Of a DNA stretch of 64,000 nt, positions 2,122 through 58,054 are shown piece by piece. The translations under genes were made by a program, and so were the position numbers. Every line of letters begins with the position of its first letter. Within the stretch, counting starts at the first letter, position 1. A model generated the notes under the pieces. It worked only from the letters and a program-made list of their open reading frames with translations, was not told where the DNA came from and did no database searches. The stretch lies in assembly GCF_003019035.1 (NCBI RefSeq), contig NZ_CP027447.1. One strand, written 5' to 3'. This DNA is from Escherichia coli. GTDB taxonomy: Bacteria; Pseudomonadota; Gammaproteobacteria; Enterobacterales; Enterobacteriaceae.

Positions 2122-4554
2122 TTACAGCATATGTTCAGTACGGGCGATGATATCGTCCTGAGCGTCTGGAGAGAGCGCGGTGAAGAAGGCGGAATAGCCC
2201 GCGACACGCACTACCAGATCGCGGTACTGATCCGGATGTTTTTTCGCTTCCAGCAGCGTTTCGCGGGAAACGATGTTGTACTGAATATGCCAGCCTTTAT
2301 GCACTTCAAAGAAGGTGCGTAGCAGGATCATCAGTTTCTGCTTGTCAGATTCGTTCTCCAGCGTTGCCGGATTCAGTTTCTGGTTGAGCAACACGCCGCC
2401 GAGAATCGCGGCCGTAGGCAGTTTACCCACCGAGCCAATGACCGCAGTAGGGCCAAGATGATCAGTACCGGAGGCCGGACTAGCGCCTTCTGCCAGCGGG
2501 GTATGCGCTTTACGTCCGTCCGGCGTTGCCATCGTCTGCGCGCCAAAGGGTACGTTAGCGGAGATAGATGACGTACCCGCGTAATAATTGCCGCCAACCG
2601 GACCACGACCATAGCGCGGGTTATGGTACTGTTTTAGTTCGTCGATATAGGTCTGATAAGCGCGAGCCAGCAGCGTATCGACAGTATCATCGTCGTTGCC
2701 GTACTTAGGCGCACCGTTAATCAGCCGCTGACGCAGCTGCTCGTGAGTCAGGCCGTCGAAGTCATCCGCCAGTGCGGCAGCCAGCTGTTGCTGACCAATC
2801 GCGCCCTGTTCAAATACCAGTTTCTTCACTGCCGCCAGGCTGTTGCCGAGGTTAGCAATGCCGACCTGCAGGCCAGAAACCCAGTCATATTTCGCGCCGC
2901 CTTGCTTGATACTTTTCGCTCGCTCAATACAGTCATCCACCAGCGCCGAGCAGAGAATATCGTGTACGTTCTCTTCCAGCATGGTGTCGACGACATATTC
3001 GATTTCGATTGATTTACGCGTGTAGTAACGGATTTGCGTATCCCATGCGTCCATTACTTCATCGAAGTTGTTGAAGTTACCCGCTGACAACGCTTTTTCT
3101 TGTGGCAGGAACACTTTGCCGCTGGTGGCATCACGACCGCCTTCCAGCGCCGCCAGCATCACGCGGGCGAAGTTGATAAAGCTCATGCCGGTACAGCGAT
3201 AGCCCCATTTGCCACCGACGGCGGTTTCGATACAACCAATCGCTGCGTAGTCGTAAGCGTCCTGCGGTTCAATACCGAGTTTAATAAATTCCGGGATGAC
3301 GATTTCATCGTTGTTGAACGCCGGCATCCCGAAACCACAGCGGATCACCTGAACACAGGCATCGAGGAAATCGTTACTCATACCCGCGTGGTAGCGCACG
3401 CTGAGGTTAGGCTGAGTGGAACGCAGGCGACCGCAAGATTCGAGGATCGCATAAGAGAGTGGATTTACCGCGTCCATCGGTTGACCATCAACCAGATTTT
3501 GCCCGCCAATGGTGACGTTCTGATACAGCGGACTTCCCGCAGAGGCTTTTGAGTGTGAGCCGGAGCGGATTTTGTTCACTTCCAGCAATTTCAACCAGCA
3601 GCTATGCAGCATCTCGATGGCGTGTTCGCGATCCAGTGTCTGGTTCAGTTCAACGTCGCGGCGATAGTAAGGGTAGAGATACTGGTCCATACGACCAAAC
3701 GATACCGAGTGACCGTTAGATTCGATCTGCAAAATCAACTGGATGAAGTAACACAGTTGCAGCGCCTGCCAGAAAGTCTGCGGCGGCTGGTGGGCGATAA
3801 GATCGCAGTTTTCTGCTATCGCCAGCAGTTCATCGCGACGGCTTTCGCGGGTTTCAGTGGCTGCCATTTCACGCGCCAGGGCAGCGAAACGTTCAATGTG
3901 TTCACTGACTGCCACCAGCACGATATCAATCGCTTTCAGGAACTGCTCGCCGTGCAAATCTTCCAGCACCGTCAGGTTGATGCGCGAGCGACGTTCCGCT
4001 ACTTTCTCGCGCAGACCATCAAGACCTTTTTCCAGCAGTAGCGGGAAATTGACCGCCAGGTGCGCATCGCCGGAGGTCATATTGCCCTCCGCTTTAATGA
4101 TGCCGGTCGCCAGCAGACCTTTTTGCTCATCGGTAAACATGCCGTAGCAGCGATCCTGTACGGTCTGACCGCGCCACCACGGGCACACTTCATGCAGAAC
4201 GCGTTTGTTCTCTTCGCTCACCGCAAAACCAGCACCGGGACGATCTGCCAGATCATCAATCTCTTTTTCGATCCATGAGACGGTATATTCCGGGAAGATC
4301 GGCGCGGCGCGAACTTCGCTTGCCTGGTTGCCAATGATCAATTCATCGTGCTTGATCCAGATGGTGCGATTCGCCAGGTGATGCGCCAGTGCCAGCGCGC
4401 GACGTACCGGGATCGGCTTATCGAGATGTTGTTGATACATCCCGGTATAGTGCTGCGCGCGCTCGGTACAAACCGGCGGTTTCACAATATGCACCAGCGC
4501 ATTTTTGTGCGCTTTAATGCGGTCGCTGAGCGTGTCCAGTTTCAGTGTGGTCAT
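2122..4554 (-). CDS. ybiW: Glycyl-radical enzyme, pyruvate formate-lyase-like
   Basis: 810-aa ORF; PFL-family length and C-terminal glycyl-radical region (RVAGYSAFF); matches recalled E. coli YbiW. Confidence 0.92.
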   Translation of the reverse strand: MTTLKLDTLSDRIKAHKNALVHIVKPPVCTERAQHYTGMYQQHLDKPIPVRRALALAHHLANRTIWIKHDELIIGNQASEVRAAPIFPEYTVSWIEKEIDDLADRPGAGFAVSEENKRVLHEVCPWWRGQTVQDRCYGMFTDEQKGLLATGIIKAEGNMTSGDAHLAVNFPLLLEKGLDGLREKVAERRSRINLTVLEDLHGEQFLKAIDIVLVAVSEHIERFAALAREMAATETRESRRDELLAIAENCDLIAHQPPQTFWQALQLCYFIQLILQIESNGHSVSFGRMDQYLYPYYRRDVELNQTLDREHAIEMLHSCWLKLLEVNKIRSGSHSKASAGSPLYQNVTIGGQNLVDGQPMDAVNPLSYAILESCGRLRSTQPNLSVRYHAGMSNDFLDACVQVIRCGFGMPAFNNDEIVIPEFIKLGIEPQDAYDYAAIGCIETAVGGKWGYRCTGMSFINFARVMLAALEGGRDATSGKVFLPQEKALSAGNFNNFDEVMDAWDTQIRYYTRKSIEIEYVVDTMLEENVHDILCSALVDDCIERAKSIKQGGAKYDWVSGLQVGIANLGNSLAAVKKLVFEQGAIGQQQLAAALADDFDGLTHEQLRQRLINGAPKYGNDDDTVDTLLARAYQTYIDELKQYHNPRYGRGPVGGNYYAGTSSISANVPFGAQTMATPDGRKAHTPLAEGASPASGTDHLGPTAVIGSVGKLPTAAILGGVLLNQKLNPATLENESDKQKLMILLRTFFEVHKGWHIQYNIVSRETLLEAKKHPDQYRDLVVRVAGYSAFFTALSPDAQDDIIARTEHML

Positions 4555-4559
4555 GGTTG

Positions 4560-5459
4560 TTATCCTCGTAAGGTCGCGGTTAACCCTTTCTGGCAGGCAT
4601 ACTGCTGGGCAAAGTCGAGCAGTTCTGGCGCATCAAGCGGTTTTTCCGGGGCGTCATAGGGCAGATTAAGTAAGTGATATTTGTTGATGCCTAGCGTGTG
4701 GTAGGGCAGGAAATGGATTTCGCCAACGTGCAGCTCGTCGGCGGCAAAATCGGTAATGGCTTTTACAGCGGTTTCGTCGGCATTAAAGCCCTGAATCAGC
4801 GGTACGCGGATGATGATTTTTTTCCCCGCCGCAGCGAGTTTTTTCAGATTATCCAGCACCCTGGCGGCGTTACCGTCGGTCCACTGTTTAAACGGCGCGT
4901 CGGCGACGTGTTTTAAATCGGCAAGAAACAGATCGATATAGGGCAGAGAAGGGGAGATATATTTCCACGGCACATGCAGACAGGTTTCTACCGCAGTATG
5001 AATGCCGGCCTCGTGGCTGGCTTGCAGTAGCGCCGTCGCCATTTCCGGCTGCATAAACGGTTCACCGCCAGAAAGTGTTAAGCCGCCGCCGCTGCGATCG
5101 TAAAACGGTTTATCGCGCAAAACGGTTGCCATGATCTCCTCAACGCTTTTCACTTCACCACACACGGTTAACGCCTGTGTCGGGCAGCAGTCGGTTAGCG
5201 CCGTCAGATGCTCCGGGGTTAACTTTTCCCGATGAATAAGCAAGCCATTCAGCGCGCGCTCAATCACGTCCGGCGCGGCCTTAGCGCACAGCTCGCAGCC
5301 TTCCAGACACAGTCGTGCGTCATACAACAGATCCTGCGTGCGGGCGCGGCTTTCCGGGTTCTGACACCAGCGGCAGCCCAGCGAACAGCCTTTAAGAAAT
5401 ACGACCGTGCGGATACCGGGGCCATCATGGGTCGAGTAGCGCTGAATATTGAAAATCAT
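4560..5459 (-). CDS. ybiY: Glycyl-radical enzyme activating protein (radical SAM)
   Basis: 299-aa ORF with cysteine clusters ([19 protein letters not shown]) typical of PFL activases; sits immediately upstream of ybiW on the same strand. Confidence 0.9.
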
Positions 5460-30963: not shown

Positions 30964-32016
30964 TTATGGGGTAATGCCAACCGCTGCCGCCACTTTGTCG
31001 CCATTTGGTAACGTTGCCAGTGGATTGAAACGGAGCGCCGTTTCCAAATGATCCAGTGCCAGATGTGCATAACGCATAGTCATTTTTATATCGTGGTGTC
31101 CGAGAATTTTTTGTAAGGCCAAGATGTTTCCACCCGACATCATGAAGTGCGCCGCAAACGTATGGCGCAGAACGTGTGTCAGTTGACCGCGAGGGAGAAC
31201 GATAGACGTTTTTTCCATCACGGATAAAAATTGAAAATAGCAGTCTGTGAAGAAATTGAACCCATCGAGCGCCATGATCTCTTCATAAAGCTCTTTACTG
31301 ATAGGGATGCTTCTGTTTTTCTTCCCCTTCGTTCTCACAAAGGTGATTCGGTACTTGGTGACCTGTGAGCGGGTAAGATTGATTGCTTCTCGCCAACGTG
31401 CGCCTGTACTTAGACATATTTTTACCACCAGTGCCAGAATTGGGTTCTGACGTTTGCAGTCAGACAGTAATTCGATGATCTGCTCATGTGTAAGCCATGC
31501 CATTTCCTTTTCTGCGATAGTGAATTTGCGCATCTTCTCTAATGGGTTTGGAAGTGTCCATTCACCCAGGCGGGAAAGTTCTCTGAAAACGCTGCTTAGA
31601 TGGCTTTGCTCCAGGTTAACAGTAACTGGGCTTGCTCCTTTCTTCCATTTTTCACTGAAGTAGATTTCACCAGTAAGGCGTTTATCGCGATAGTGAGCAA
31701 ACATTTTTGAGGTGAGATCGGTTGCAAGGGGATTTCCCAAGGCGTCAACCATCAACAGCAGCTTGTTGTAGACATGCTGTCCGGCAGTAAGAGATTTGCC
31801 ATGTAATTTGAACCATAGCTCAACCATATCTTTCAGTGTCCGACGATCCACTGATTCGCCCAGCCAGGGCTTTGCTTCTATTTCCCCCATGGTGTATCGC
31901 TCGAAGGCCAGTGCTTCGCCTTTGGTGGCGAATTGTTTACGCACACGACGCCCATTACGTCCGGCGGGGTAACATTCGCAAAGCCATTTCCCTGTGGTGA
32001 GTTTTCGTACTGCCAT
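30964..32016 (-). CDS. int: Phage tyrosine integrase (P2 Int-like)
   Basis: Start chosen at MAVRKLTTGKW; C-terminal catalytic region (HVLRHTFAAHFMMSGGNILALQKILGHHDIKMTMRYAHL) carries the tyrosine-recombinase R-H-R-Y signature. Confidence 0.88.
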   Translation of the reverse strand: MAVRKLTTGKWLCECYPAGRNGRRVRKQFATKGEALAFERYTMGEIEAKPWLGESVDRRTLKDMVELWFKLHGKSLTAGQHVYNKLLLMVDALGNPLATDLTSKMFAHYRDKRLTGEIYFSEKWKKGASPVTVNLEQSHLSSVFRELSRLGEWTLPNPLEKMRKFTIAEKEMAWLTHEQIIELLSDCKRQNPILALVVKICLSTGARWREAINLTRSQVTKYRITFVRTKGKKNRSIPISKELYEEIMALDGFNFFTDCYFQFLSVMEKTSIVLPRGQLTHVLRHTFAAHFMMSGGNILALQKILGHHDIKMTMRYAHLALDHLETALRFNPLATLPNGDKVAAAVGITP

Positions 32017-32204
32017 AAAAAATGCCCTCCAGTAGAGAGCATTTTCACTGTATGTATAACCAGTGTCAATGTATGAAATCCTACGACCATACATCTCACT
32101 GAAGCCATAATTAAGTTGGCTATTCTTTTTGCTATGTGAGCATGTAACTTTTGCGGTTAACCTGCGGCTCATTTTTATTTTAGGCGCAGATATAAAAGCA
32201 AAAG

Positions 32205-32411: not shown

Positions 32412-32987
32412 CTATTTAACATACTTGACTGTTAAACTTATAATTTTACCAATTATTTCAATGTCTTCTATCTTGCATTCGAACGCTCTGTTTCCACCCT
32501 CGACGAAGATTCTTCCACCGGGTAAACGAGTAATGTCACGGATCGTTATTTCACCATCAATACTTATTACCCATTTACCATCACGTATATCATCAAATTC
32601 CTTATCACAAATAAATTCAGAATTATTATCTGTGATTACAAAAAGACTCTTGAATGCCGACGGTAGAAATCCCCTATCGAAAATATAAAAACCGTCTTCA
32701 CACAAGGCACCATCAGATAATACATATTTAGCAACTTCCATAGTATTTGTATTACCTGAAGTTTGCTTTGAACCATGTCCGGTTGTGAGCCAATTAAGCG
32801 AGGTGCCCGTTTCAAGGGCGCATTGGATTACCCATTCTGCTGGGAATGAGTCACGCATGTAGCGTGTGGCGAGTGTACTTTTAGAGATTCCTAAATGATC
32901 GCACAACGCCTGTCGAGTTTTGAATCCATAAGCTTCTACCATGCGCTCTATAGCGCCTCGTCCGCCTTTCTCCAAATTCATGGTCAC
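32412..32987 (-). CDS. cI: Prophage repressor CI (186 CI-like)
   Basis: 191-aa ORF; N-terminal HTH (LCDHLGISKSTLATRYMRD); divergent from apl/cII as in phage 186. Confidence 0.85.
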   Translation of the reverse strand: MTMNLEKGGRGAIERMVEAYGFKTRQALCDHLGISKSTLATRYMRDSFPAEWVIQCALETGTSLNWLTTGHGSKQTSGNTNTMEVAKYVLSDGALCEDGFYIFDRGFLPSAFKSLFVITDNNSEFICDKEFDDIRDGKWVISIDGEITIRDITRLPGGRIFVEGGNRAFECKIEDIEIIGKIISLTVKYVK

Positions 32988-33106
32988 TCCAAGTGAACTT
33001 TTATCTTGACGATTTCACTGTGCGATCGTATGTTTATGATGTTCACAAAATACAAACGATCCGTATTCGTCCTGATTAATCATCATTAAACGAGGAATGT
33101 TGCATC

Positions 33107-34174: not shown

Positions 34175-34269
34175 AGGATGGAACCTTTATACGTGGTGAA
34201 AAAGTACAAGAAGTGATGCGTATAAAGACATCACCTCTTGAACGTTATCGGCGAAATATTTATCGGTAA
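34045..34269 (+). CDS. Hypothetical early-region protein
   Basis: 74-aa ORF (MYAAENEVVYHFRYRGENYSVPEDDLL...); no motif recognised. Confidence 0.4.
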   Translation: MYAAENEVVYHFRYRGENYSVPEDDLLCCYPSLSGDGSYFFTLKDGTFIRGEKVQEVMRIKTSPLERYRRNIYR

Positions 34270-34508
34270 CGATCTATCAGTGTCTGTATCAGATGAGTGA
34301 ATTCTTGTTGTTTAACCGAACCTAAAGGAAGTTTGTTTAATTCTTCGCGGAGGAGCTCAAAAAATGCTGATTGATTTGCTGAGTCAGTTCGAAATAAGGA
34401 GTGGATCAGACCTGAAACAAGAATTCGTTGAACAGCAACCTCATCGCGAAGACTGGAGATCTCGTTTTCAAGTTGCTCTATACGCTCTCTTTCAACCGGG
34501 TTCAACAT
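34260..34508 (-). CDS. Hypothetical small protein, oriented against the early operon
   Basis: 82-aa ORF with an AGGA RBS 7 nt upstream of its ATG; charged, helical-looking sequence. Confidence 0.35.
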   Translation of the reverse strand: MLNPVERERIEQLENEISSLRDEVAVQRILVSGLIHSLFRTDSANQSAFFELLREELNKLPLGSVKQQEFTHLIQTLIDRYR

Positions 34509-34993: not shown

Positions 34994-35233
34994 TTGATTA
35001 TGCGTAATATTGAAACCCTCTCGACCAAAACCGGACCGGATGACGCAGGGCTTAATATTTTACTGACAGAAGCTCGTCTGGAAGAACGCCGGGCAAGGGC
35101 TGAAGCAATGGCAGCTCGCCTTGATAGCCTGGCGTGTCATATCACATCCCGCCAGCTAACCCACGTCGAAGCGGCAGAACTGCTTCGTGTGACTGCTGAA
35201 GCAATCCAGAACGAAGCGCAGGAGATCCACTAA
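34994..35233 (+). CDS. Hypothetical phage early protein
   Basis: 79-aa ORF; Ala/Arg/Glu-rich. Confidence 0.5.
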   Translation: MIMRNIETLSTKTGPDDAGLNILLTEARLEERRARAEAMAARLDSLACHITSRQLTHVEAAELLRVTAEAIQNEAQEIH

Positions 35234-35460
35234 TGGCTGATGCAATGGATCTCGTACAGCAGCGCGTTGAAGAAGAACGCCAACGCCATATCCGTGCTGC
35301 CCGTGCCAAAACGCCGGGCGTGTCCCGCGTGCTTTGCATTGAGTGTGAAGCGCCAATTCCGCCAGCACGCCGCCGTGCCATTCCGGGTGTGCAGCTTTGC
35401 ATTACCTGTCAGGAAATCGCAGAGCTGAAAGGCAAACATTACAACGGAGGTGCTGTATGA
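35233..35460 (+). CDS. TraR/DksA-family C4 zinc-finger protein
   Basis: 75-aa ORF with CxxC-N17-CxxC (CIECEAPIPPARRRAIPGVQLCITCQ). Confidence 0.7.
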   Translation: MADAMDLVQQRVEEERQRHIRAARAKTPGVSRVLCIECEAPIPPARRRAIPGVQLCITCQEIAELKGKHYNGGAV

Positions 35461-36314
35461 GCACCATCCTGAAATGGGCGGGAAATAAAACTGCCATAAT
35501 GTCCGAACTGAAAAAACATCTTCCTGCTGGCCCGCGACTGGTTGAACCTTTCGCGGGTTCCTGTGCTGTGATGATGGAGACGGATTATCCCAGCTATCTG
35601 GTTGCGGATATTAATCCTGATTTAATCAACCTCTATAAAAAGGTTGTCGCTGATTGTGAATCGTTTATATCTCGCGCCAGAGTTTTATTTGAGAACGCAA
35701 ACAGGGAGATGGATTATTACAACATAAGGCAGGAGTTTAATTACTCAACTGAAATTACTGATTTCATGAAAGCGGTATATTTCCTGTATCTCAATCGTCA
35801 CGGTTACCGTGGTTTATGTCGCTATAACAAGAGCGGGCATTTCAACATTCCCTACGGTAATTATAAAAATCCGTATTTCCCTGAAAAAGAAATTCGCGCA
35901 TTTGCAGAGAAAGCCCAGCGGGCAACGTTTATCTGCGCCAGCTTTGATGAAACGCTGGCGATGCTGCAGGTGGGGGATGTGGTGTATTGCGATCCGCCTT
36001 ATGACGGCACGTTTTCCGGTTATCACACTGACGGCTTCACTGAAGATGACCAGTATCATCTGGCATCCGTTCTTGAGCATCGGTCATCAGAAGGACATCC
36101 GGTCATTGTTTCTAACAGTGACACATCCCTGATCCGTTCGCTGTATCGCAATTTTACTCACCACTACATCAAGGCAAAACGCAGCATCGGCGTAGCAGCT
36201 GGTGAGAGTAAATCTGCAACAGAAATCATCGCTGTTTCTGGGGCACGCTGCTGGGTGGGATTTGATCCTTCGCGTGGCGTGGATAGTTCTGCTGTGTACG
36301 AGGTGCGTGTATGA
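35457..36314 (+). CDS. DNA adenine (N6) methyltransferase, Dam-like, phage-encoded orphan
   Basis: Start at [14 protein letters not shown]-binding EPFAGSCAV and catalytic DPPY motif ([10 protein letters not shown]). Confidence 0.8.
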
Positions 36315-38725
36315 GTCATGACGATATGAGCAACTCTAGCGGCTTTAACGAGGCCGCTGCATCATTTTCATGGAACGGCCCGAAAAAGGCCATTAACCCT
36401 TATCTGGACCCGGCGGAAGTTGCGCCGGAGTCTGCACTTTCAAACCTGATCACTCTGTATGCTGCCGATAACGAGCAGGAACAACTGCGCCGCGAGGCAC
36501 TGAGTGAGCAGGTCTGGGAGCGTTATTTCTTTAATGAATCCCGTGATCCTGTCCAGCGCGAAATGGAGCAGGATAAGCTCATTAGCCGGGCAAAGCTGGC
36601 GCATGAGCAGCAGCGTTTTAATCCAGACATGGTCATTCTGGCTGACGTCAACGCCCAGCCTTCCCATATCAGCAAGCCGCTGATGCAACGTATTGAATAC
36701 TTCAGCAGCCTGGGCAGGCCAAAGGCTTATTCCCGCTATTTGCGTGAGACGATTAAGCCATGTCTGGAACGACTGGAGCATGTACGCGACAGTCAGCTAT
36801 CCACTTCTTTTCGCTTTATGGCAAGCCATGAAGGGCTGGACGGCCTGCTGATCCTGCCTGAAATGAGTCAGGATCAGGTGAAACGCCTGTCTACCCTTGT
36901 CGCTGCGCATATGAGCATGTGTCTTGATGCCGCTTGTGGTGATTTGTACGCCACCGATGATGTTAAGCCAGAAGAAATCCGCAAGACATGGGAAAAGGTG
37001 GCAGCGGAAACCCTACGTTTGGATGTCATCCCGCCTGCGTTTGAGCAACTCCGTCGGAAAAGAAACCGCCGTAAACCAGTGCCCTATGAACTCATTCCGG
37101 GCTCGCTGGCGCGTATGCTGTGCGCCGACTGGTGGTATCGGAAATTGTGGAAGATGCGTTGCGAATGGCGGGAAGAGCAGTTGCGTGCTGTCTGCCTGGT
37201 CAGCAAAAAAGCATCTCCCTATGTCAGCTATGAAGCTGTGATGCATAAACGTGAGCAGCGCCGTAAGTCGCTGGAGTTTTTCCGTTCTCATGAACTGGTG
37301 AACGAAGACGGAGACGCGCTGGATATGGAAGATGTGGTAAACGCCAGCTGCAGCAACCCGGCGCATCGCCGCAATGAGATGATGGCCTGTGTTAAAGGTC
37401 TGGAGCTTATCGCGGAAATGCGCGGTGACTGCGCCGTTTTCTACACCATTACCTGTCCGTCACGTTTCCATTCCACGCTCAATAACGGCAGACCCAACCC
37501 GACCTGGAAAAACGCGACGGTAAGACAAAGCAGCGATTATCTGGTCGGTATGTTTGCTGCATTTCGTAAGGCGATGCACAAAGCCGGGTTGCGCTGGTAT
37601 GGCGTGCGGGTGGCTGAGCCGCATCACGACGGCACAGTTCACTGGCACCTGTTGTGTTTCATGCGCAAAAAAGACCGCCGCGCCATTACTGCATTGTTGC
37701 GTAAGTTTGCTATCCGTGAAGACCGCGAGGAGCTGGGCAATAACACGGGGCCGCGCTTTAAGTCTGAGTTGATTAACCCGCGCAAAGGTACGCCAACAAG
37801 CTACATCGCGAAATACATCAGTAAGAACATTGACGGGCGTGGTCTGGCTGGCGAGATCAGCAAGGAAACGGGGAAATCCCTGCGTGATAATGCTGAATAC
37901 GTTAATGCCTGGGCGTCTCTGCATCGTGTTCAGCAATTCCGCTTCTTTGGCATTCCGGGGCGTCAGGCTTACCGCGAACTGCGATTGCTGGCTGGTCAGG
38001 CGGCAAGGCAACAGGGGGACAAAAAAGCAGGTGCGCCGGTACTGGATAACCCGCGCCTTGATGCAATCCTGGCTGCTGCTGATGCTGGTTGTTTTGCCAC
38101 CTACATCATGAAGCAGGGCGGCGTACTGGTTCCCCGCAAATATCACCTGATCAGAACCGCTTATGAAATCAACGAAGAGCCGACCGCCTATGGCGATCAC
38201 GGCATTCGTATTTATGGCATCTGGTCACCCATTGCAGAGGGCAAGATCTGCACTCATGCAGTGAAGTGGAAAATGGTTCGTAAGGCCGTTGACGTTCAGG
38301 AGGCGGCAGCCGACCAGGGCGCTTGCGCCCCTTGGACTCGTGGCAATAACTGTCCCCTTGCTGAAAATTTGAACCAACAAGGGAAAGACAAATCAGCTGA
38401 TGGGGACTCCAGAACGGATATTACCCGTATGAATGACAAGGAGTTGCACGATTACCTGCACAGTATGAGCAAAAAAGAGCGCCGGGAACTGGCTGCAAGG
38501 TTACGCCAGGTGAAACCGAAACGGCGTAAAGACTACAAACAGCGAATTACAGACCATCAGCGACAGCAGCTCGTCTATGAACTGAAGTCCAGGGGATTTG
38601 ATGGCAGCGAGAAAGAAGTCGATTTGCTCCTTCGCGGCGGCAGTATTCCGTCAGGAGCAGGCCTGCGTATCTTCTATCGGAACCAACGTCTGAAGGAAGA
38701 TGATAAGTGGCGGAACCTGTATTAA
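36311..38725 (+). CDS. Replication initiation endonuclease (P2 gpA-like, HUH rolling-circle family)
   Basis: 804-aa ORF; HUH motif (HWHLLCF) and catalytic tyrosine pair (SYIAKYISK). Confidence 0.88.
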
Positions 38726-39838: not shown

Positions 39839-40303
39839 GGAAACTCCTTTTATTGGTGTTTGCTATTTGAATAAAAATACGCCAAACAGAGTGTTAACTG
39901 TGAATATGGAAAGAATCGTTGTAAGTACCCCGCTTAGGTGTCCCATTCTATTTTAGAGGTTCTCGTGCATATGGATTATGTTATCTGAAAGTTAACTTCC
40001 GCTTCCCGTTCACAGCGAACATTCATCTTTGTAAACCCGTATGATCCGTTTTTCAAGTGGCCATTCAGATACGGATTTTCACTTCCTTGACAGTGCATGA
40101 CTATGCTGCATGAAATCGCATGATCGATTGAGGATCGTCTTTGCTCAGATCCGCCAGAACTGGCGGGCTTTTGCTCATGTCATGCATGTGCATGAAAACC
40201 ACTGCATAAAGCGGGCAGGCGTGGCGGGGATACGAGCGCGCGCTTATTACTTTGATAGTACTCGGGTTATAATATGGATGACTATCTATCTCGGAGAATG
40301 TGC

Positions 40304-41956
40304 ATGTCATTGGACTATATTAAAGAACAGTTGTCAGACTTTATTTCATCTGCAGAACCTGAGGTAATGGCTATTCAGGGTGAATGGGGGATTGGGAAAA
40401 CCTATACTTGGAATACTTTCTTAAAGGAAAATAAAAATAAGATTGCATTTAATAGATATAGTTACGTCTCTCTTTTTGGTGTTAATTCATTGGACGCATT
40501 AAAATATTCCATCTTTGAAAATACAATTACAAAAGATTTTATTGGAAATAAACCTAATTTAAAAACAGCAACACAAAATACAAAGGGACTTCTTGAATCC
40601 TGCACTAGAAAGACCGCTCGTTTGTTAAAAGAAACACCTGTTGTGAAAAATTTCGCTACGACACTTGAGTCAATGTCATTTATGTCAATTACTAATGTTA
40701 TTGTAGTCATAGATGACTTAGAAAGACGTGGTAAAAATTTAGAAGTGAAAGATGTCTTAGGGTTGGTTTCTTTATTGAAAGAACAAAAAAATTGTAAGGT
40801 GGTTCTTTTACTTAATAATGGGACAAGTGGTATGGATGATTACTCCACTTATAAAGAAAAGGTTATTGATAGAGAGATTACCTATAACCCTACGCCAGAA
40901 GAATGTGCAGCTATAGCATATAAAAATAATTCTGATGTTCATAAATTATTAAGCAAATACTCCATTTCTCTGGGTATTAAAAATATTCGGATACTGAAAA
41001 AAATAGAGCGGTTTTTGCTAGCCTTGTTACCTGCTATTAACGTTAATTTTGATAAAATTGCAAATGAAGTCGCACGCTCCTTAACTTTGTATTGTTGGAG
41101 TCATTACGCATTTACTCCAGATGGAGATGTACCATCATTGGAATATATTAGAAATATGAGAAATATCTATATGCGTGATGAAAAAGAGGATGGAAAAGGA
41201 AAAAAATGGCTTAATACTTTGCTTATATATGGTTATAAAAAAACAAACGAACTTGATGAAGTCCTTATAGACATGGTTAAGCATGGATATATTGATATGA
41301 ACAATTTTCAAAGGCAAGTAAGTCTAAGAAATGATGAACTTATCCGTGATAGTAAGCGAGGTTCACTGTTTGAAGCATGGAAGCTTTTCTATAATTCATT
41401 TGAAGATAACCGAAATCAGGTTGTTGATAATCTATATCAAGCGGTGGTTGGTGGGATAGAGTATGTAACTCCAAGTGACTTGGATAGTGTTGTCGGACTG
41501 TATAGAGATTTAGATGAAAATATTAAAGCAAGTGAATTAATAAGTAAATTTATTAATTACGGCAATGATGCTCTTAAGGAATATGTCCAATCTATTTACA
41601 TGAATGTTCATCCTATAAAAGATGCTGAGTTAAAGTCAAAAATCCAAGATTATTCTATTACTTTAAATCTGGATGGTTCTATAAAGGATGTTCTAATAAA
41701 ATTATCAAGTCAGAATGGTTGGTCTGATAGGCACGAGGAAATATTGGATGCTGCCTCAGAGGATGACTACTATGATTTATTTAAAAAAGTCATTCTTGAA
41801 GGTGGTGATTCAATAATAGCCACTGCTCTTAAGTTTGGTGGGTATAGCAATGGTTCAGATAGAATGAAACGCATCGGAGAAAAAGCGAGAAATGCTTTGA
41901 TAAGAATTGGAAATGAGTCGAAGATTAATAAAATACGTGTTAGACGGTATTTGTAA
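40304..41956 (+). CDS. KAP-family P-loop NTPase (alternative start at 40274)
   Basis: Walker A of KAP type (GEWGIGKTY) and Walker B (VIVVIDDLERRG); AT-rich codon usage unlike the flanking phage genes; lies at the P2 old/tin position between A and Q. Confidence 0.75.
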   Translation: MSLDYIKEQLSDFISSAEPEVMAIQGEWGIGKTYTWNTFLKENKNKIAFNRYSYVSLFGVNSLDALKYSIFENTITKDFIGNKPNLKTATQNTKGLLESCTRKTARLLKETPVVKNFATTLESMSFMSITNVIVVIDDLERRGKNLEVKDVLGLVSLLKEQKNCKVVLLLNNGTSGMDDYSTYKEKVIDREITYNPTPEECAAIAYKNNSDVHKLLSKYSISLGIKNIRILKKIERFLLALLPAINVNFDKIANEVARSLTLYCWSHYAFTPDGDVPSLEYIRNMRNIYMRDEKEDGKGKKWLNTLLIYGYKKTNELDEVLIDMVKHGYIDMNNFQRQVSLRNDELIRDSKRGSLFEAWKLFYNSFEDNRNQVVDNLYQAVVGGIEYVTPSDLDSVVGLYRDLDENIKASELISKFINYGNDALKEYVQSIYMNVHPIKDAELKSKIQDYSITLNLDGSIKDVLIKLSSQNGWSDRHEEILDAASEDDYYDLFKKVILEGGDSIIATALKFGGYSNGSDRMKRIGEKARNALIRIGNESKINKIRVRRYL

Positions 41957-52606: not shown

Positions 52607-53185
52607 ATGAACGCACAATTAACCGAAATCATGCGCCTTATCACCAATCTGATCCGCACTGGGGTAGTCACCGAAGTGGACCGGGAGAATTGGCTTTGCC
52701 GGGTGAAAACGGGCGACCTTGAAACTAACTGGATCAGTTGGCTGACGCTGCGTGCCGGGAATGCCCGCACATGGTGGCGACCATCGGAAGGTGAGCAGGT
52801 GGTGCTGCTGAGTCTTGGCGGCAATCTGGAGACTGCCTTTGCGCTGCCCGCTGTCTATTCGAATCAGTTCGCACCACCGTCGACGTCGGCGGACGCCTGC
52901 GTGACAGAACATCCTGACGGTGGCTGGTTTGAATACGAACCCGCCACCGGGCGCTGGTATGTCAAGGGCATCAAATCAATGGTCATTGAGGCCGCTGACA
53001 ACATCACCATGAAAACCAGTGAGTTTGTACTGGAGGCTGACCGCACGCGCATTAACAGCGAAGTGGTGATCAATGGTGGCGTTACCCAGGGCGGCGGAGC
53101 GATGAGTTCTAACGGGATCGTGGTTGATGTGCATCAGCATACTGGCGTCCTGAAAGGCGGCGATACAACCGGAGGCCCGGTATGA
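52607..53185 (+). CDS. Baseplate spike protein (P2 gpV-like)
   Basis: Start at MNAQLTEIMRLITNLIRTG, resembling the recalled P2 gpV N-terminus. Confidence 0.8.
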   Translation: MNAQLTEIMRLITNLIRTGVVTEVDRENWLCRVKTGDLETNWISWLTLRAGNARTWWRPSEGEQVVLLSLGGNLETAFALPAVYSNQFAPPSTSADACVTEHPDGGWFEYEPATGRWYVKGIKSMVIEAADNITMKTSEFVLEADRTRINSEVVINGGVTQGGGAMSSNGIVVDVHQHTGVLKGGDTTGGPV

Positions 53186-57016: not shown

Positions 57017-58054
57017 TTATATTTGCCTACCTCCTAATAAAATGTGTGAGGTGTATTTGTTGGTTTTCAATAACCTTGCTACAATTATACAGGTGGTTAC
57101 AATAAGGAAAACAAATGAAGGGGTTATGATGAGGTTATATATGAGTGGATTTTCGCATAGGTTATTAATGTTCACGTATGCCTCTATTCTGTGAAAAATA
57201 AACGACGAGATTATATAGATGGGAAAGGTGTAAGTACCGACAAAGGATGTGGCTCGTATAAATAAATTATTTTTCGTTGATAAAAATGTATAAGCATATA
57301 TAAGCGATATGCTTCCGGCGAAGCCAATGAAGTAGCGAAATATAATAATGAATGATTGATGCCAGAAATCAACATTCTCATATGTCATTTTAGATATGTA
57401 AATATAATACTCTCTATTCCATAGGAGAAGCATACCAATCCATGTTAATACGGCTAACACACCAATTTTGTGCCTATTTCTAGAGGCAAAATCTAAAATG
57501 CGATGGGCGGATATACCAGCGATAAAATAAGGGGCCATAAATTTAATTTTGTCCATATTCCAATCATCTCCATATGCAAGGGATATACTAAATATCAGTA
57601 AATAAAGCACCACAGAATATTGTTTGCTTATTGAGTGACAAATAGTATAAACAATAGATACTGCAAAGAGTGCAGAAAGGAACCAGAAGGCGTAGATGGC
57701 TCCATATCTAATATTTATTAAATTTATATCTCTTCCCACAAAAATGGATTCAGCAATGAACCATGCAATGGATGGGATTATTAACTGCATGAATTTTCTT
57801 TTGATAATTGATGATGGTTTTCTCTTGAGAGAAAAATAGAAAAGATAGCCGCTAAGCAGCATAAAAAATGGCATGTGGAAGCTGTAAATGGTAATAAATA
57901 ATGGGTTGTCAAAAAAATTGAAACTATCTTTTTTTACAAACTGAATTGAATGGCCCCACACGACAAAAATTATAGCTAATCCTTTCATTGAGTCTATAAT
58001 GGAATTTCGAGTGCTGGGTGTCTCTGTTATAATAAGATGTGGTTCGTTTTTCAT
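57017..58054 (-). CDS. Membrane acyltransferase (acyltransferase-3 family; candidate LPS O-acetyltransferase)
   Basis: 345-aa polytopic ORF; N-terminal RNSIIDSMKGLAIIFVVWGHS typical of OafA/Oac-type acyltransferases; AT-rich; at the P2 Z/fun position. Confidence 0.75.
   Translation of the reverse strand: MKNEPHLIITETPSTRNSIIDSMKGLAIIFVVWGHSIQFVKKDSFNFFDNPLFITIYSFHMPFFMLLSGYLFYFSLKRKPSSIIKRKFMQLIIPSIAWFIAESIFVGRDINLINIRYGAIYAFWFLSALFAVSIVYTICHSISKQYSVVLYLLIFSISLAYGDDWNMDKIKFMAPYFIAGISAHRILDFASRNRHKIGVLAVLTWIGMLLLWNREYYIYISKMTYENVDFWHQSFIIIFRYFIGFAGSISLIYAYTFLSTKNNLFIRATSFVGTYTFPIYIISSFIFHRIEAYVNINNLCENPLIYNLIITPSFVFLIVTTCIIVARLLKTNKYTSHILLGGRQI

Follow-up and report, generated by a model that had tools for sequence, protein, structure and literature searches.

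A Dam-type orphan DNA adenine methylase gene in a Fels-2/186-like prophage of Escherichia coli and the GATC content of related phages

Why should a temperate phage carry a DNA adenine methylase of its own when its hosts already have Dam? The question is raised by a gene located in a stretch of 64,000 nucleotides of Escherichia coli DNA (assembly GCF_003019035.1, contig NZ_CP027447.1), hereafter the window, which a sequence-only reading had described as a phage-encoded, orphan, Dam-like adenine methyltransferase of an early operon. The gene and the signals within and around it are the following:

35457-36314, plus strand: dam-like gene, 858 bp, encoding a 285-aa D12-class (alpha-group) Dam-family N6-adenine DNA methyltransferase; stop codon at 36312-36314
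35446-35460, plus strand: Shine-Dalgarno sequence GGAGG (35446-35450) and ATGA overlap with the zinc-finger gene (35457-35460), both read from the sequence
35547-35564, plus strand: AdoMet-binding motif I, PFAGSC, residues 31-36, aligned to PFVGAG of E. coli Dam
35991-36002, plus strand: catalytic motif IV, DPPY, residues 179-182, aligned to D181-Y184 of E. coli Dam

A TTG at 35397 was rejected as start codon in favor of the ATG at 35457-35459, because GGAGG is found 6 nt upstream of the latter, the resulting 858 bp equal the annotated length in both phage RE-2010 and E. coli genomes, and the alignment with E. coli Dam starts at residue 4. The Dam-like assignment, initially proposed from the DPPY and SAM-binding motifs, withstood profile searches: PF02086 was matched over its whole length (1-253 of 253; E 3.1e-77, 260 bits for a cutoff of 22), TIGR00571 reached 321.5 bits (cutoff 114.85; E 5e-96) and phrog_56 gave an E of 1.5e-122, while the best PADLOC model was the "orphan methyltransferase" (oMTase, E 3.7e-111). 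Structures of E. coli Dam were also retrieved (PDB 2g1p, E 7e-73, 47% identity over 263 aligned residues), and the order of motif I, DNA-recognition region and motif IV is the same in both proteins, as in the alpha group. In motif I, the F and the first G of PFVGAG are kept and the second G is replaced by C in the phage methylase. The codons of DPPY themselves (GAT CCG) contain a GATC site.

In E. coli Dam, GATC is read by residues K9, Y119, N120, L122, R124, P134, and Y138 (PMC4417163). Six of the seven are identical in the phage methylase (K6, Y117, L120, R122, P132, and Y136, respectively), the only one changed being N120, which is R118 here; in addition, R137 of E. coli Dam is replaced by N. 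Both changes could modify the flank preference or the processivity of the enzyme. With dN/dS values of 0.10-0.16 against orthologues at 74-97% identity, the gene is shown to be under purifying selection, and the catalytic and DNA-reading residues are all kept at 74% identity. We infer from the sequence that the enzyme is active and specific for GATC. Indirect evidence of m6A methylation at GATC is given by the density contrast described below and by the title of Hsu et al. (1990), on a protein whose labeled relative is 95% identical. The locus holds an intact Dam-type DNA adenine methylase gene, real but ordinary, of a family already described in 1990.

The gene is indeed phage-encoded, since it lies within a Fels-2/RE-2010-like prophage of the P2 family (Peduoviridae; Fels-2/186-like) located beside ybjK/mdfA in E. 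coli. It occurs in the same context, annotated as "DNA adenine methylase," in 1238 of 5426 complete E. coli genomes (~23%), with full-length copies in 1232 of them, and close relatives are present in Salmonella, Klebsiella, Escherichia, and Yersinia. The exact protein is present in NCBI under the name "DNA adenine methylase," and a 95%-identical protein of 285 aa bears the label "retron EC67 DNA adenine methylase," which results from annotation transfer. Given this label and such widespread annotation, the gene is already known and the gene call adds nothing new.

The retron-Ec67 element reportedly maps near 19 min of the E. coli chromosome, where the prophage studied here sits, and is said to contain an ORF of 285 residues that is 44% identical to E. 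coli Dam. In its title, the article of Hsu, Inouye & Inouye (1990, PNAS 87:9454) attributes "Dam methylase functions" to this 186-related prophage element. The retron-Ec67 prophage (phiR67; Dodd & Egan 1996 Virology 219:115) is of the same kind, 34-kb and 186-like, and the 285-aa protein labeled after it is the 95%-identical one; it differs by its cargo locus between cos and the portal gene, which here harbors a KAP-family NTPase instead of a retron. Similarly, members of Felsduovirus (Salmonella RE-2010/ELPhiS and SEN8, Klebsiella KP12 and 4LV2017) encode methylases of 94-97% protein identity, with the same 858 bp, the same neighbors (DUF2732, TraR-like, dam, gpA) and the same overlaps. SEN8 differs by an extra exonuclease-like gene before dam, and RE-2010 by a P2 C-type repressor and an AIPR gene, compared to a 186-type CI and a KAP NTPase here.

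The chromosomal Dam of E. coli (EcoDam; PDB 2G1P) shares fold family, motif order and DPPY with the phage protein at the 47% identity given above, whereas the latter is phage-borne, is encoded in a lytic operon, lacks five residues after DPPY, and extends past the aligned core by a C-terminal tail of 25 residues. Its score against the chromosomal Dam equivalog NF008152 (288.8 bits) falls below the cutoff of 441, and it therefore represents a separate phage lineage rather than a copy of the host gene. Orphan GATC methylases are likewise encoded by other phages of Dam+ hosts (T4/T2 Dam, P1 Dmt, VT2/933W Dam, and Dam of Haemophilus HP1, also a P2-family phage); these other phage Dams are distant (about 21% identity for T4 Dam, 36% for the N-terminal part of P1 Dmt) and are found in other genomic contexts. 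M.EcoMIV of the ST131 strain EC958, a prophage "Dam homolog" reported to be poorly transcribed (PMC4659465), was rejected as an orthologue: this protein of 254 aa belongs to a Mu-like prophage and is only 26% identical, and is therefore uninformative on the methylase discussed here.

The surroundings of the gene are those of a phage early operon:

32412-32987, minus strand: 186-type CI repressor gene (PF07022, E 3e-33; PF16452, E 7e-27)
33006-33034, plus strand: candidate early lytic promoter TTGACG-17-TATGTT, between the CI repressor and apl/cox-like genes (consensus scan only)
34994-35233, plus strand: DUF2732 gene (PF10809, E 1e-28), its stop overlapping the zinc-finger start (TAATG)
35233-35460, plus strand: TraR/DksA-type C4 zinc-finger gene, homologue of P2 orf82 and 5' neighbor of the methylase (PF01258, zf-dskA_traR, E 3e-11; TIGR02419, E 4e-18; phrog_54)
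36311-38725, plus strand: replication gene A, rolling-circle initiator/nickase (PF05840, E 6.5e-127)
36337-36359, plus strand: stable hairpin with T-rich tail, 26 nt inside gene A, terminator-like match (-15.3 kcal/mol, z -2.9)

Genes follow one another in the order int, CI, apl/cox-like, cII, fil-like, DUF5347, DUF2732, TraR-like, dam, gpA, and the methylase operon is co-oriented and tightly packed, with the order seen in RE-2010, MS6193, and 186. The placement in an early operon was thus borne out by agreement with the curated early lytic operon of 186. A promoter and terminator scan gave fewer promoter-like sites than shuffled sequences do and nothing convincing within 34994-36311, and a splitting of the operon by internal promoters or terminators was rejected for that interval. 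The position of the candidate promoter agrees with that of the 186 switch, and by analogy CI is expected to repress the early operon, and hence the methylase, in the lysogen.

As first noticed from the sequence, the methylase start overlaps the zinc-finger stop (ATGA 35457-35460, TGA at 35458-35460). The other end of the gene is built in the same way, the methylase stop and the gene A start sharing an ATGA at 36311-36314 with GAGG (36300-36303) located 7 nt 5' of the gene A start, so that both ends carry an ATGA overlap, each with a Shine-Dalgarno sequence. This second overlap was absent from the sequence-only reading and is probably the more important of the two. In phage 186, the same slot directly upstream of gene A, again with overlapping stop and start, is occupied by orf84, whose PAPS-reductase-domain product is unrelated to the methylase; 186 lacks Dam and shows strong avoidance of GATC. 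According to the curated 186 record, translation up to the end of orf84 appears to be needed for translation of the A protein, and the terminator tM1 is placed just inside A. By analogy, the hairpin at 36337-36359 is expected to be the positional counterpart of tM1, stopping lytic transcripts if A is left untranslated.

The methylase is an orphan, as had been claimed: its neighbors are the DUF2732, TraR-like, and gpA genes, no restriction endonuclease adjoins it, and no GATC-specific endonuclease was seen within the window. The adjacent cognate endonuclease characteristic of a type II restriction-modification system (DpnII/MboI-like) is thus missing. Other non-structural genes of the prophage comprise the KAP NTPase, AriA/AriB-like genes and an acyltransferase, and an Rfam search of the prophage portion of the window returned no matches.

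What such a gene may bring to its carriers is suggested by their base composition. GATC densities were compared in a homologous late-gene region of ~11 kb between Dam-encoding and Dam-less relatives:

Fels-2-like, Dam-encoding: 66 loci, median 3.5 GATC/kb, O/E 0.73
P2-like, Dam-less: 42 loci, median 0.45 GATC/kb, O/E 0.11
186-like, Dam-less: 48 loci, median 0.9 GATC/kb, O/E 0.24

The two ranges are disjoint, with a minimum of 2.9/kb among Dam-encoding loci and a maximum of 2.37/kb among the others. Among the 16 palindromes of 4 bp, GATC alone differs (6.6x and 3.3x), all others staying at 0.63-1.44x except the very rare CTAG. Dam-encoding Peduoviridae of two other genera also keep GATC, as seen in Yersinia vB_YenM_42.18 (O/E 0.58-0.64) and Salmonella SI7 (0.91). 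The Mann-Whitney P of 4e-25 obtained for the contrast overstates the evidence, because the loci within each group are close relatives, and independent lineages are few, namely three Dam-encoding genera versus about three or four groups lacking Dam. In some P2/186-like loci without Dam, the depletion is only mild (O/E 0.35-0.5); a hidden non-D12 methylase was rejected as explanation from the region upstream of gpA, which in four of these relatives contains no methylase-sized ORF. The prophage itself carries 109 GATC in the 33 kb seen. Avoidance of GATC within it was considered and discarded, O/E being 0.75 in the prophage and in the E. coli flank alike, on a par with the Dam-encoding group, a value that is informative only once set against P2 and 186.

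Judged from composition, the contrast is an evolutionary footprint of GATC methylation, compatible with MutH, SeqA or a restriction enzyme as the agent acting against unmethylated GATC, and it does not show which. One published study (PMC5014478) states that enterobacteriophages counter-select GATC, proposes MutH acting on poorly methylated phage DNA as the cause, and mentions that host Dam methylates phage DNA inefficiently (citing McClelland 1984; Deschavanne & Radman 1991).

We therefore favor, with a probability of about 0.8, an active, GATC-specific orphan methylase of the Dam family, belonging to the early lytic operon of a Fels-2/186-like temperate phage and boosting the methylation of phage DNA. 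The gene would be expressed as part of the early lytic operon, which extends from the apl/cox-like gene to gene A and would remain silent under CI in the lysogen. Translation of the TraR-like gene, dam, and gene A would be tightly chained in this order, so that the methylase would be made together with the rolling-circle initiator and its translation would probably be a precondition for that of gpA. The enzyme would add capacity at the time when copying of phage DNA outpaces the limiting host Dam. Progeny genomes would thereby become fully methylated at their GATC sites (~109 in the 33 kb seen) and escape incision by MutH, binding by SeqA and, in the next host, restriction by methylation-sensitive enzymes specific for GATC; such full methylation of the fast-replicating DNA may lift the known counter-selection against GATC. 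Extra methylation capacity is the better-supported benefit because the hosts (E. coli, Salmonella, and Klebsiella) already have Dam, and this role fits both the density contrast and the published counter-selection (PMC5014478). The timing of expression and the dependence of gene A translation on dam translation are presumed from the analogy with 186, and the choice of the cost of unmethylated GATC that matters is likewise presumptive.

Two functions had been suggested from the sequence alone, protection of phage DNA against host restriction and modification of host gene expression. The first is plausible, although the hosts already have Dam, whereas the second is unlikely in a stable lysogen, because the gene belongs to a CI-controlled lytic operon and has no convincing internal promoter. 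Protection could even be the main role, progeny being methylated in advance so as to withstand, in the next host, enzymes of the MboI/DpnII/Sau3AI type or other defenses that recognize unmethylated GATC. This proposal overlaps with the favored explanation and differs only in the selective agent. It corresponds to the usual interpretation of orphan phage methylases, and is consistent with the 109 GATC sites and with the wide host range indicated by close relatives in Salmonella, Klebsiella, Escherichia, and Yersinia. Moreover, a Dcm-type methylase occupies the position before gene A in phage SI7, as do PAPS-reductase-like genes in 186 and some relatives, which suggests a general DNA-modification module. 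On the contrary, every listed host has its own Dam, the window contains no visible GATC-specific endonuclease, and the account of GATC avoidance in coliphages given in PMC5014478 is based on MutH, so that anti-restriction as the principal role appears possible but rather improbable.

Dam methylation gates pac cleavage in P1 and mom expression in Mu, and GATC methylation could similarly time events in the phage described here. The sites concerned are the following:

40218-40236, plus strand: cos cohesive-end sequence GGCGTGGCGGGGATACGAG, GGCG[AT]GGCGGGG match to P2 cosR/cosL and 186 cos
40122-40151, no strand assigned: three GATC within 27 bp (40122/40133/40148), 70-95 bp left of cos, candidate methylase substrates

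The cos site sits at the conserved end of a block common to relatives with different cargo. Together with a trio at 38149/38195/38245, located 90-190 nt upstream of the predicted ori nick (mapped by alignment with P2/186 at about 38333-38336, in gene A), the cos-proximal trio forms one of the two densest GATC clusters of the prophage, and two further GATC, at 33024 and 33058, lie in the CI/apl switch region. Between one and five GATC are present in the 130 bp left of cos in 74/74 relatives where cos was found, compared to none within 260 bp of cos in P2 and 186. For SopE-phi, a related prophage, Dam methylation is known to favor excision (PMC7380047). These clusters are nevertheless statistically unremarkable: as calculated from GATC counts, chance alone would give the prophage about 4.5 trios within 100 bp and about 0.37 within 27 bp, and the cos and ori clusters were accordingly rejected as evidence of regulation. 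Furthermore, relatedness confounds the conservation seen in close relatives, GATC is nearly missing throughout P2 and 186 and not at cos alone, and the immunity region is mosaic, RE-2010 combining a P2 C-type repressor with the same methylase, which is therefore not tied to one switch. Epigenetic control is consequently unlikely, whether as timing of phage events or as a variant in which leaky methylase expression reprograms phase-variable genes of the host, the latter facing also the location of the gene in a repressed lytic operon.

A composite version, in which methylase translation would gate that of gpA while methylation of the cos and ori clusters would time packaging or replication as at P1 pac, is quite doubtful. 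If true, the acquisition of dam would have freed the Fels-2 lineage from the GATC avoidance of P2 and 186 and let GATC become regulatory marks.

An active enzyme of relaxed or non-GATC specificity is very improbable. The replacements of N120 and R137 and the existence of non-specific prophage adenine methylases would allow it, but six of the seven base-reading residues are kept, including the key discriminator R124, the known non-specific enzymes belong to other classes, and the compositional footprint is specific to GATC. Finally, that catalysis is irrelevant and the gene mainly a translated spacer bringing ribosomes to gene A, a task that any ORF placed in the orf84 slot would perform, agrees with the 186 record on A translation and with the unrelated genes filling this slot in different phages, but is scarcely credible given the dN/dS of 0.10-0.16 over the whole protein, the full retention of catalytic and DNA-reading residues at 74% identity, and a GATC-specific density contrast that a pure spacer leaves unexplained.

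These prophages have a modest interest beyond a gene that was already annotated. A single phage family, whose members share homologous late genes and the same Dam+ hosts, offers a clean natural experiment in which Dam-encoding lineages hold a host-like GATC frequency, whereas lineages without Dam avoid GATC 3- to 7-fold. This contrast lends support to the long-standing view that coliphages pay a cost for under-methylated GATC, and makes the methylase-carrying prophage a tractable system for asking which host factor imposes that cost.

The methylase is phage-encoded, as the sequence-only reading had proposed, and belongs to a P2-family prophage that runs from ~30,890 to beyond the end of the window. 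The left 30.9 kb are E. coli chromosome (dacC, deoR, mdfA, ybjI, ybjJ, ybjK), with 95-100% identity to 5424 of 5426 complete genomes. The prophage gene order from the apl/cox-like gene to gene A also bears out the early-operon location: cII is followed by a fil-like gene, DUF5347, DUF2732, the TraR-like gene, the methylase and gene A, and then by a DinI-like gene, cos (40218-40236), a cargo gene, the portal, the terminase and the late genes. Salmonella phage RE-2010 and many Felsduovirus prophages of Klebsiella share this order, the segment being 95-96% identical.

Features of the prophage in the window
30964-32172, minus strand: integrase
32412-32987, minus strand: 186-type CI repressor
33107: apl/cox-like gene
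33355: cII
34260-34508, minus strand: 82-aa antisense gene inside the early lytic operon (phrog_26925, full length, E 2.6e-56)
35233-35460, plus strand: TraR/DksA-type C4 zinc-finger gene, 75 aa (PF01258, E 3e-11; TIGR02419, E 4e-18)
35457-36314, plus strand: methylase, 285 aa
36311-38725: replication gene A (PF05840, E 6.5e-127)
40274-41956, plus strand: KAP-family P-loop NTPase, 560 aa, in the cargo locus that separates cos from the portal gene (PADLOC candidate system PDC-S49, E 4e-25; PF07693, E 3e-9)
50394-51251, minus strand: DUF4435 protein, AriB-like (PADLOC AriB, E 2e-21)
51238-52494, minus strand: AAA_15/AAA_21 ATPase, AriA-like (PADLOC AriA, E 2.5e-38)
57017-58054, minus strand: Acyl_transf_3 acyltransferase between the tail-fibre genes and the sheath gene (E 5e-27)

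The 82-aa gene, followed directly after its stop by a terminator-like hairpin with a 13-bp stem (34240-34207), would be transcribed in the direction opposite to the early operon.

The ATG at 35457 is the correct start of the methylase, since GGAGG lies 6 nt upstream, the resulting 858 bp equal the length of the annotated orthologues in RE-2010 and E. coli genomes, and the alignment with E. coli Dam begins at residue 4. This ATG overlaps the TGA of the zinc-finger gene (ATGA), as can be read in the sequence, and the gene ends with the TGA at 36312-36314 (plus strand). Both motifs described earlier are present, PFAGSC for AdoMet binding at residues 31-36 and DPPY at residues 179-182. Failure in profile searches had been named as grounds for refutation; instead, the protein matches Pfam PF02086 (E 3e-77), NCBIfam TIGR00571 (E 5e-96, 3x the cutoff), phrog_56 (E 1.5e-122), the PADLOC 'orphan methyltransferase' model (E 3.7e-111) and E. 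coli Dam crystal-structure sequences (E 7e-73), which upholds a Dam-like adenine methyltransferase. The observation is thus confirmed and its interpretation supported.

The protein shares 47% identity with E. coli Dam over 263 aligned residues. In E. coli Dam, K9 and Y138 read the first pair of GATC, L122 and P134 the third and R124 the fourth, while Y119 intercalates and N120 forms a base hydrogen bond (PMC4417163). The phage K6, Y117, L120, R122, P132 and Y136 are identical to K9, Y119, L122, R124, P134 and Y138, the only base-reading change being N120 to R118; the phosphate-contact R137 is an N. The chromosomal-Dam equivalog model gives 289 bits against a cutoff of 441, which sets the methylase apart as a phage lineage of its own rather than a duplicate of the host gene. 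Selection on it is purifying, with dN/dS of 0.10-0.16 against orthologues at 74-97% identity and all motifs kept. We conclude that it is a predicted active, GATC-specific m6A methyltransferase.

The finding is already known, given the NCBI annotation of the exact protein ('DNA adenine methylase [Escherichia coli]', on 95 contigs), the presence of the gene in 1238 of 5426 complete E. coli genomes (at least about 90% nucleotide identity) and the label 'retron EC67 DNA adenine methylase' on a 95%-identical protein, a label that leads back to Hsu, Inouye and Inouye, 1990. Among the matches listed, a TraR/DksA regulator gene adjoins the methylase in every case and a replication endonuclease gene in nearly all. 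The methylase is thus ordinary and widely annotated, its family having been first described in 1990. The open reading frame of Hsu, Inouye and Inouye reportedly had 285 residues and 44% identity to E. coli Dam, in an element said to lie at 19 min, which fits the integration site here. The 90%-identity protein cluster of the methylase also includes 804-aa replication endonucleases, one of them its representative; an artefact of clustering is the probable cause, perhaps originating in a fused or mis-called ORF across the ATGA overlap somewhere. M.EcoMIV, a Dam homologue of an ST131 prophage reported as poorly transcribed (PMC4659465), was ruled out as evidence, being of a Mu-like prophage and 26% identical.

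The methylase was rightly called an orphan: its neighbours are non-nucleases, and no GATC endonuclease was found among the remaining accessory genes of the prophage within the window. At the position of the KAP gene, relatives carry an AIPR gene (RE-2010), a 416-aa hypothetical (MS6193, a record with matching early gene order) or the retron (Ec67 prophage). The AriA/AriB-like insert (50394-52494) is flanked by tail genes S (49917-50375) and V (52541-53185) and resembles a moron-borne abortive-infection system of the PARIS type, and the acyltransferase is a possible O-antigen-modifying lysogenic-conversion gene.

A second ATGA overlap (36311-36314), with GAGG 7 nt upstream, joins the methylase stop to the start of gene A. 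For orf84 of 186, in the same slot, the curated record notes that 'translation to end of orf84 appears necessary for translation of A protein'. It describes tM1, a terminator a short way into A, as 'expected ... in absence of translation of A gene'. Here, a hairpin with a T-rich tail (36337-36359; -15.3 kcal/mol, z -2.9) lies 26 nt within gene A. This anatomy and the 186 annotation suggest that translation of the methylase would deliver ribosomes to gene A, so that both proteins would be made together. The slot itself varies among P2-family phages and is a possible hotspot of DNA-modification genes.

Occupants of the slot before gene A
P2: orf83
186: PAPS-reductase-like orf84
SEN8 (Fels-2-like Salmonella phage): exonuclease-like gene and Dam
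SI7 (Salmonella phage of another Peduoviridae genus): Dam, small ORF, Dcm-type methylase
L059 (Fels-2-like relative): same dam as in the window, then a PAPS-reductase-like gene
L023 (Fels-2-like relative): same dam, then a 273-aa protein without Pfam match (~3355-4176, reverse complement)

The 273-aa ORF without Pfam match also stands between dam and gpA in L036, L044, L065, L078, L082 and L088. An extra ~1 kb separates dam and gpA in L059 and L076, filled in L059 by a PAPS-reductase-domain gene like 186 orf84.

The hosts of these phages already possess Dam, which raises the question of why a phage should carry a second one. Homologous late genes, in a region of ~11 kb on the portal side, were compared among IMG/VR relatives that had been fetched with the portal proteins of the prophage, P2 and 186.

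GATC in late-gene regions (median per kb; observed/expected, O/E)
Fels-2-like, all with the dam of the window, 66 loci: 3.5; 0.73
P2-like, no Dam, 42 loci: 0.45; 0.11
186-like, no Dam, 48 loci: 0.9; 0.24

The ranges of Dam-encoding and Dam-less late-gene loci do not overlap, these loci representing only a handful of independent lineages, and the Dam-encoding group is on par with the E. coli flank of the window (O/E 0.75). Among the 16 4-bp palindromes, GATC alone differs (6.6x and 3.3x), the others lying at 0.63-1.44x with the very rare CTAG set aside. Similarly, GATC is kept in the Dam-encoding Yersinia phage vB_YenM_42.18 (O/E 0.58-0.64) and in SI7 (O/E 0.91). The intact Dam ORF of vB_YenM_42.18 (L253, NC_070913.1, ~4300-5150; DPPY, 52% identity to the methylase of the window), directly 5' of gpA, is unannotated: the record holds there two short hypothetical proteins only, and its annotated gpA start (4989) overlaps the ORF.

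According to published work, GATC is counter-selected in enterobacteriophages and host Dam methylates phage DNA poorly, the proposed cause being MutH acting on poorly methylated phage DNA (PMC5014478, citing McClelland, 1984; Deschavanne and Radman, 1991). Most simply, the phage methylase would add methylation capacity while the phage replicates lytically, thereby removing the cost of GATC. The density contrast does not single out the selective agent, and restriction by GATC-specific enzymes is a live alternative.

A regulatory role for GATC near cos and ori is improbable. The densest clusters of the prophage do lie there, at 40122, 40133 and 40148 (27 bp; 70-95 bp left of cos) and at 38149, 38195 and 38245 (90-190 nt upstream of the ori nick position that P2 and 186 predict), and relatives retain 1-5 GATC within 130 bp left of cos, where P2 and 186 have none. 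However, P2 and 186 lack GATC nearly everywhere, and at the GATC density of the prophage chance predicts ~4.5 trios within 100 bp and ~0.37 within 27 bp. The last cos-side site runs into a terminator-like hairpin (40150-40167), the whole block lying 50-95 bp left of cos; MS6193 has the identical block 40122-40167, and RE-2010 keeps two of its three sites, with different cargo downstream. In 1990, Hsu et al. reportedly described three GATC sites at this locus, upstream of the retron RT gene. Two further sites (33024, 33058) lie in the CI/apl switch region, one within the spacer of a candidate early promoter (33006-33034). The suggested effect on host gene expression is unlikely in a lysogen, because the CI-controlled switch lies upstream of the lytic operon in which the methylase sits, and a promoter scan found no convincing promoter of the gene's own.

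The one new result with some value is the contrast in GATC density, specific to this palindrome, between P2-family phages that encode Dam and those that do not. It provides indirect evidence for the activity and specificity of the methylase and suggests a simple genetic test of the reason for GATC avoidance in coliphages.
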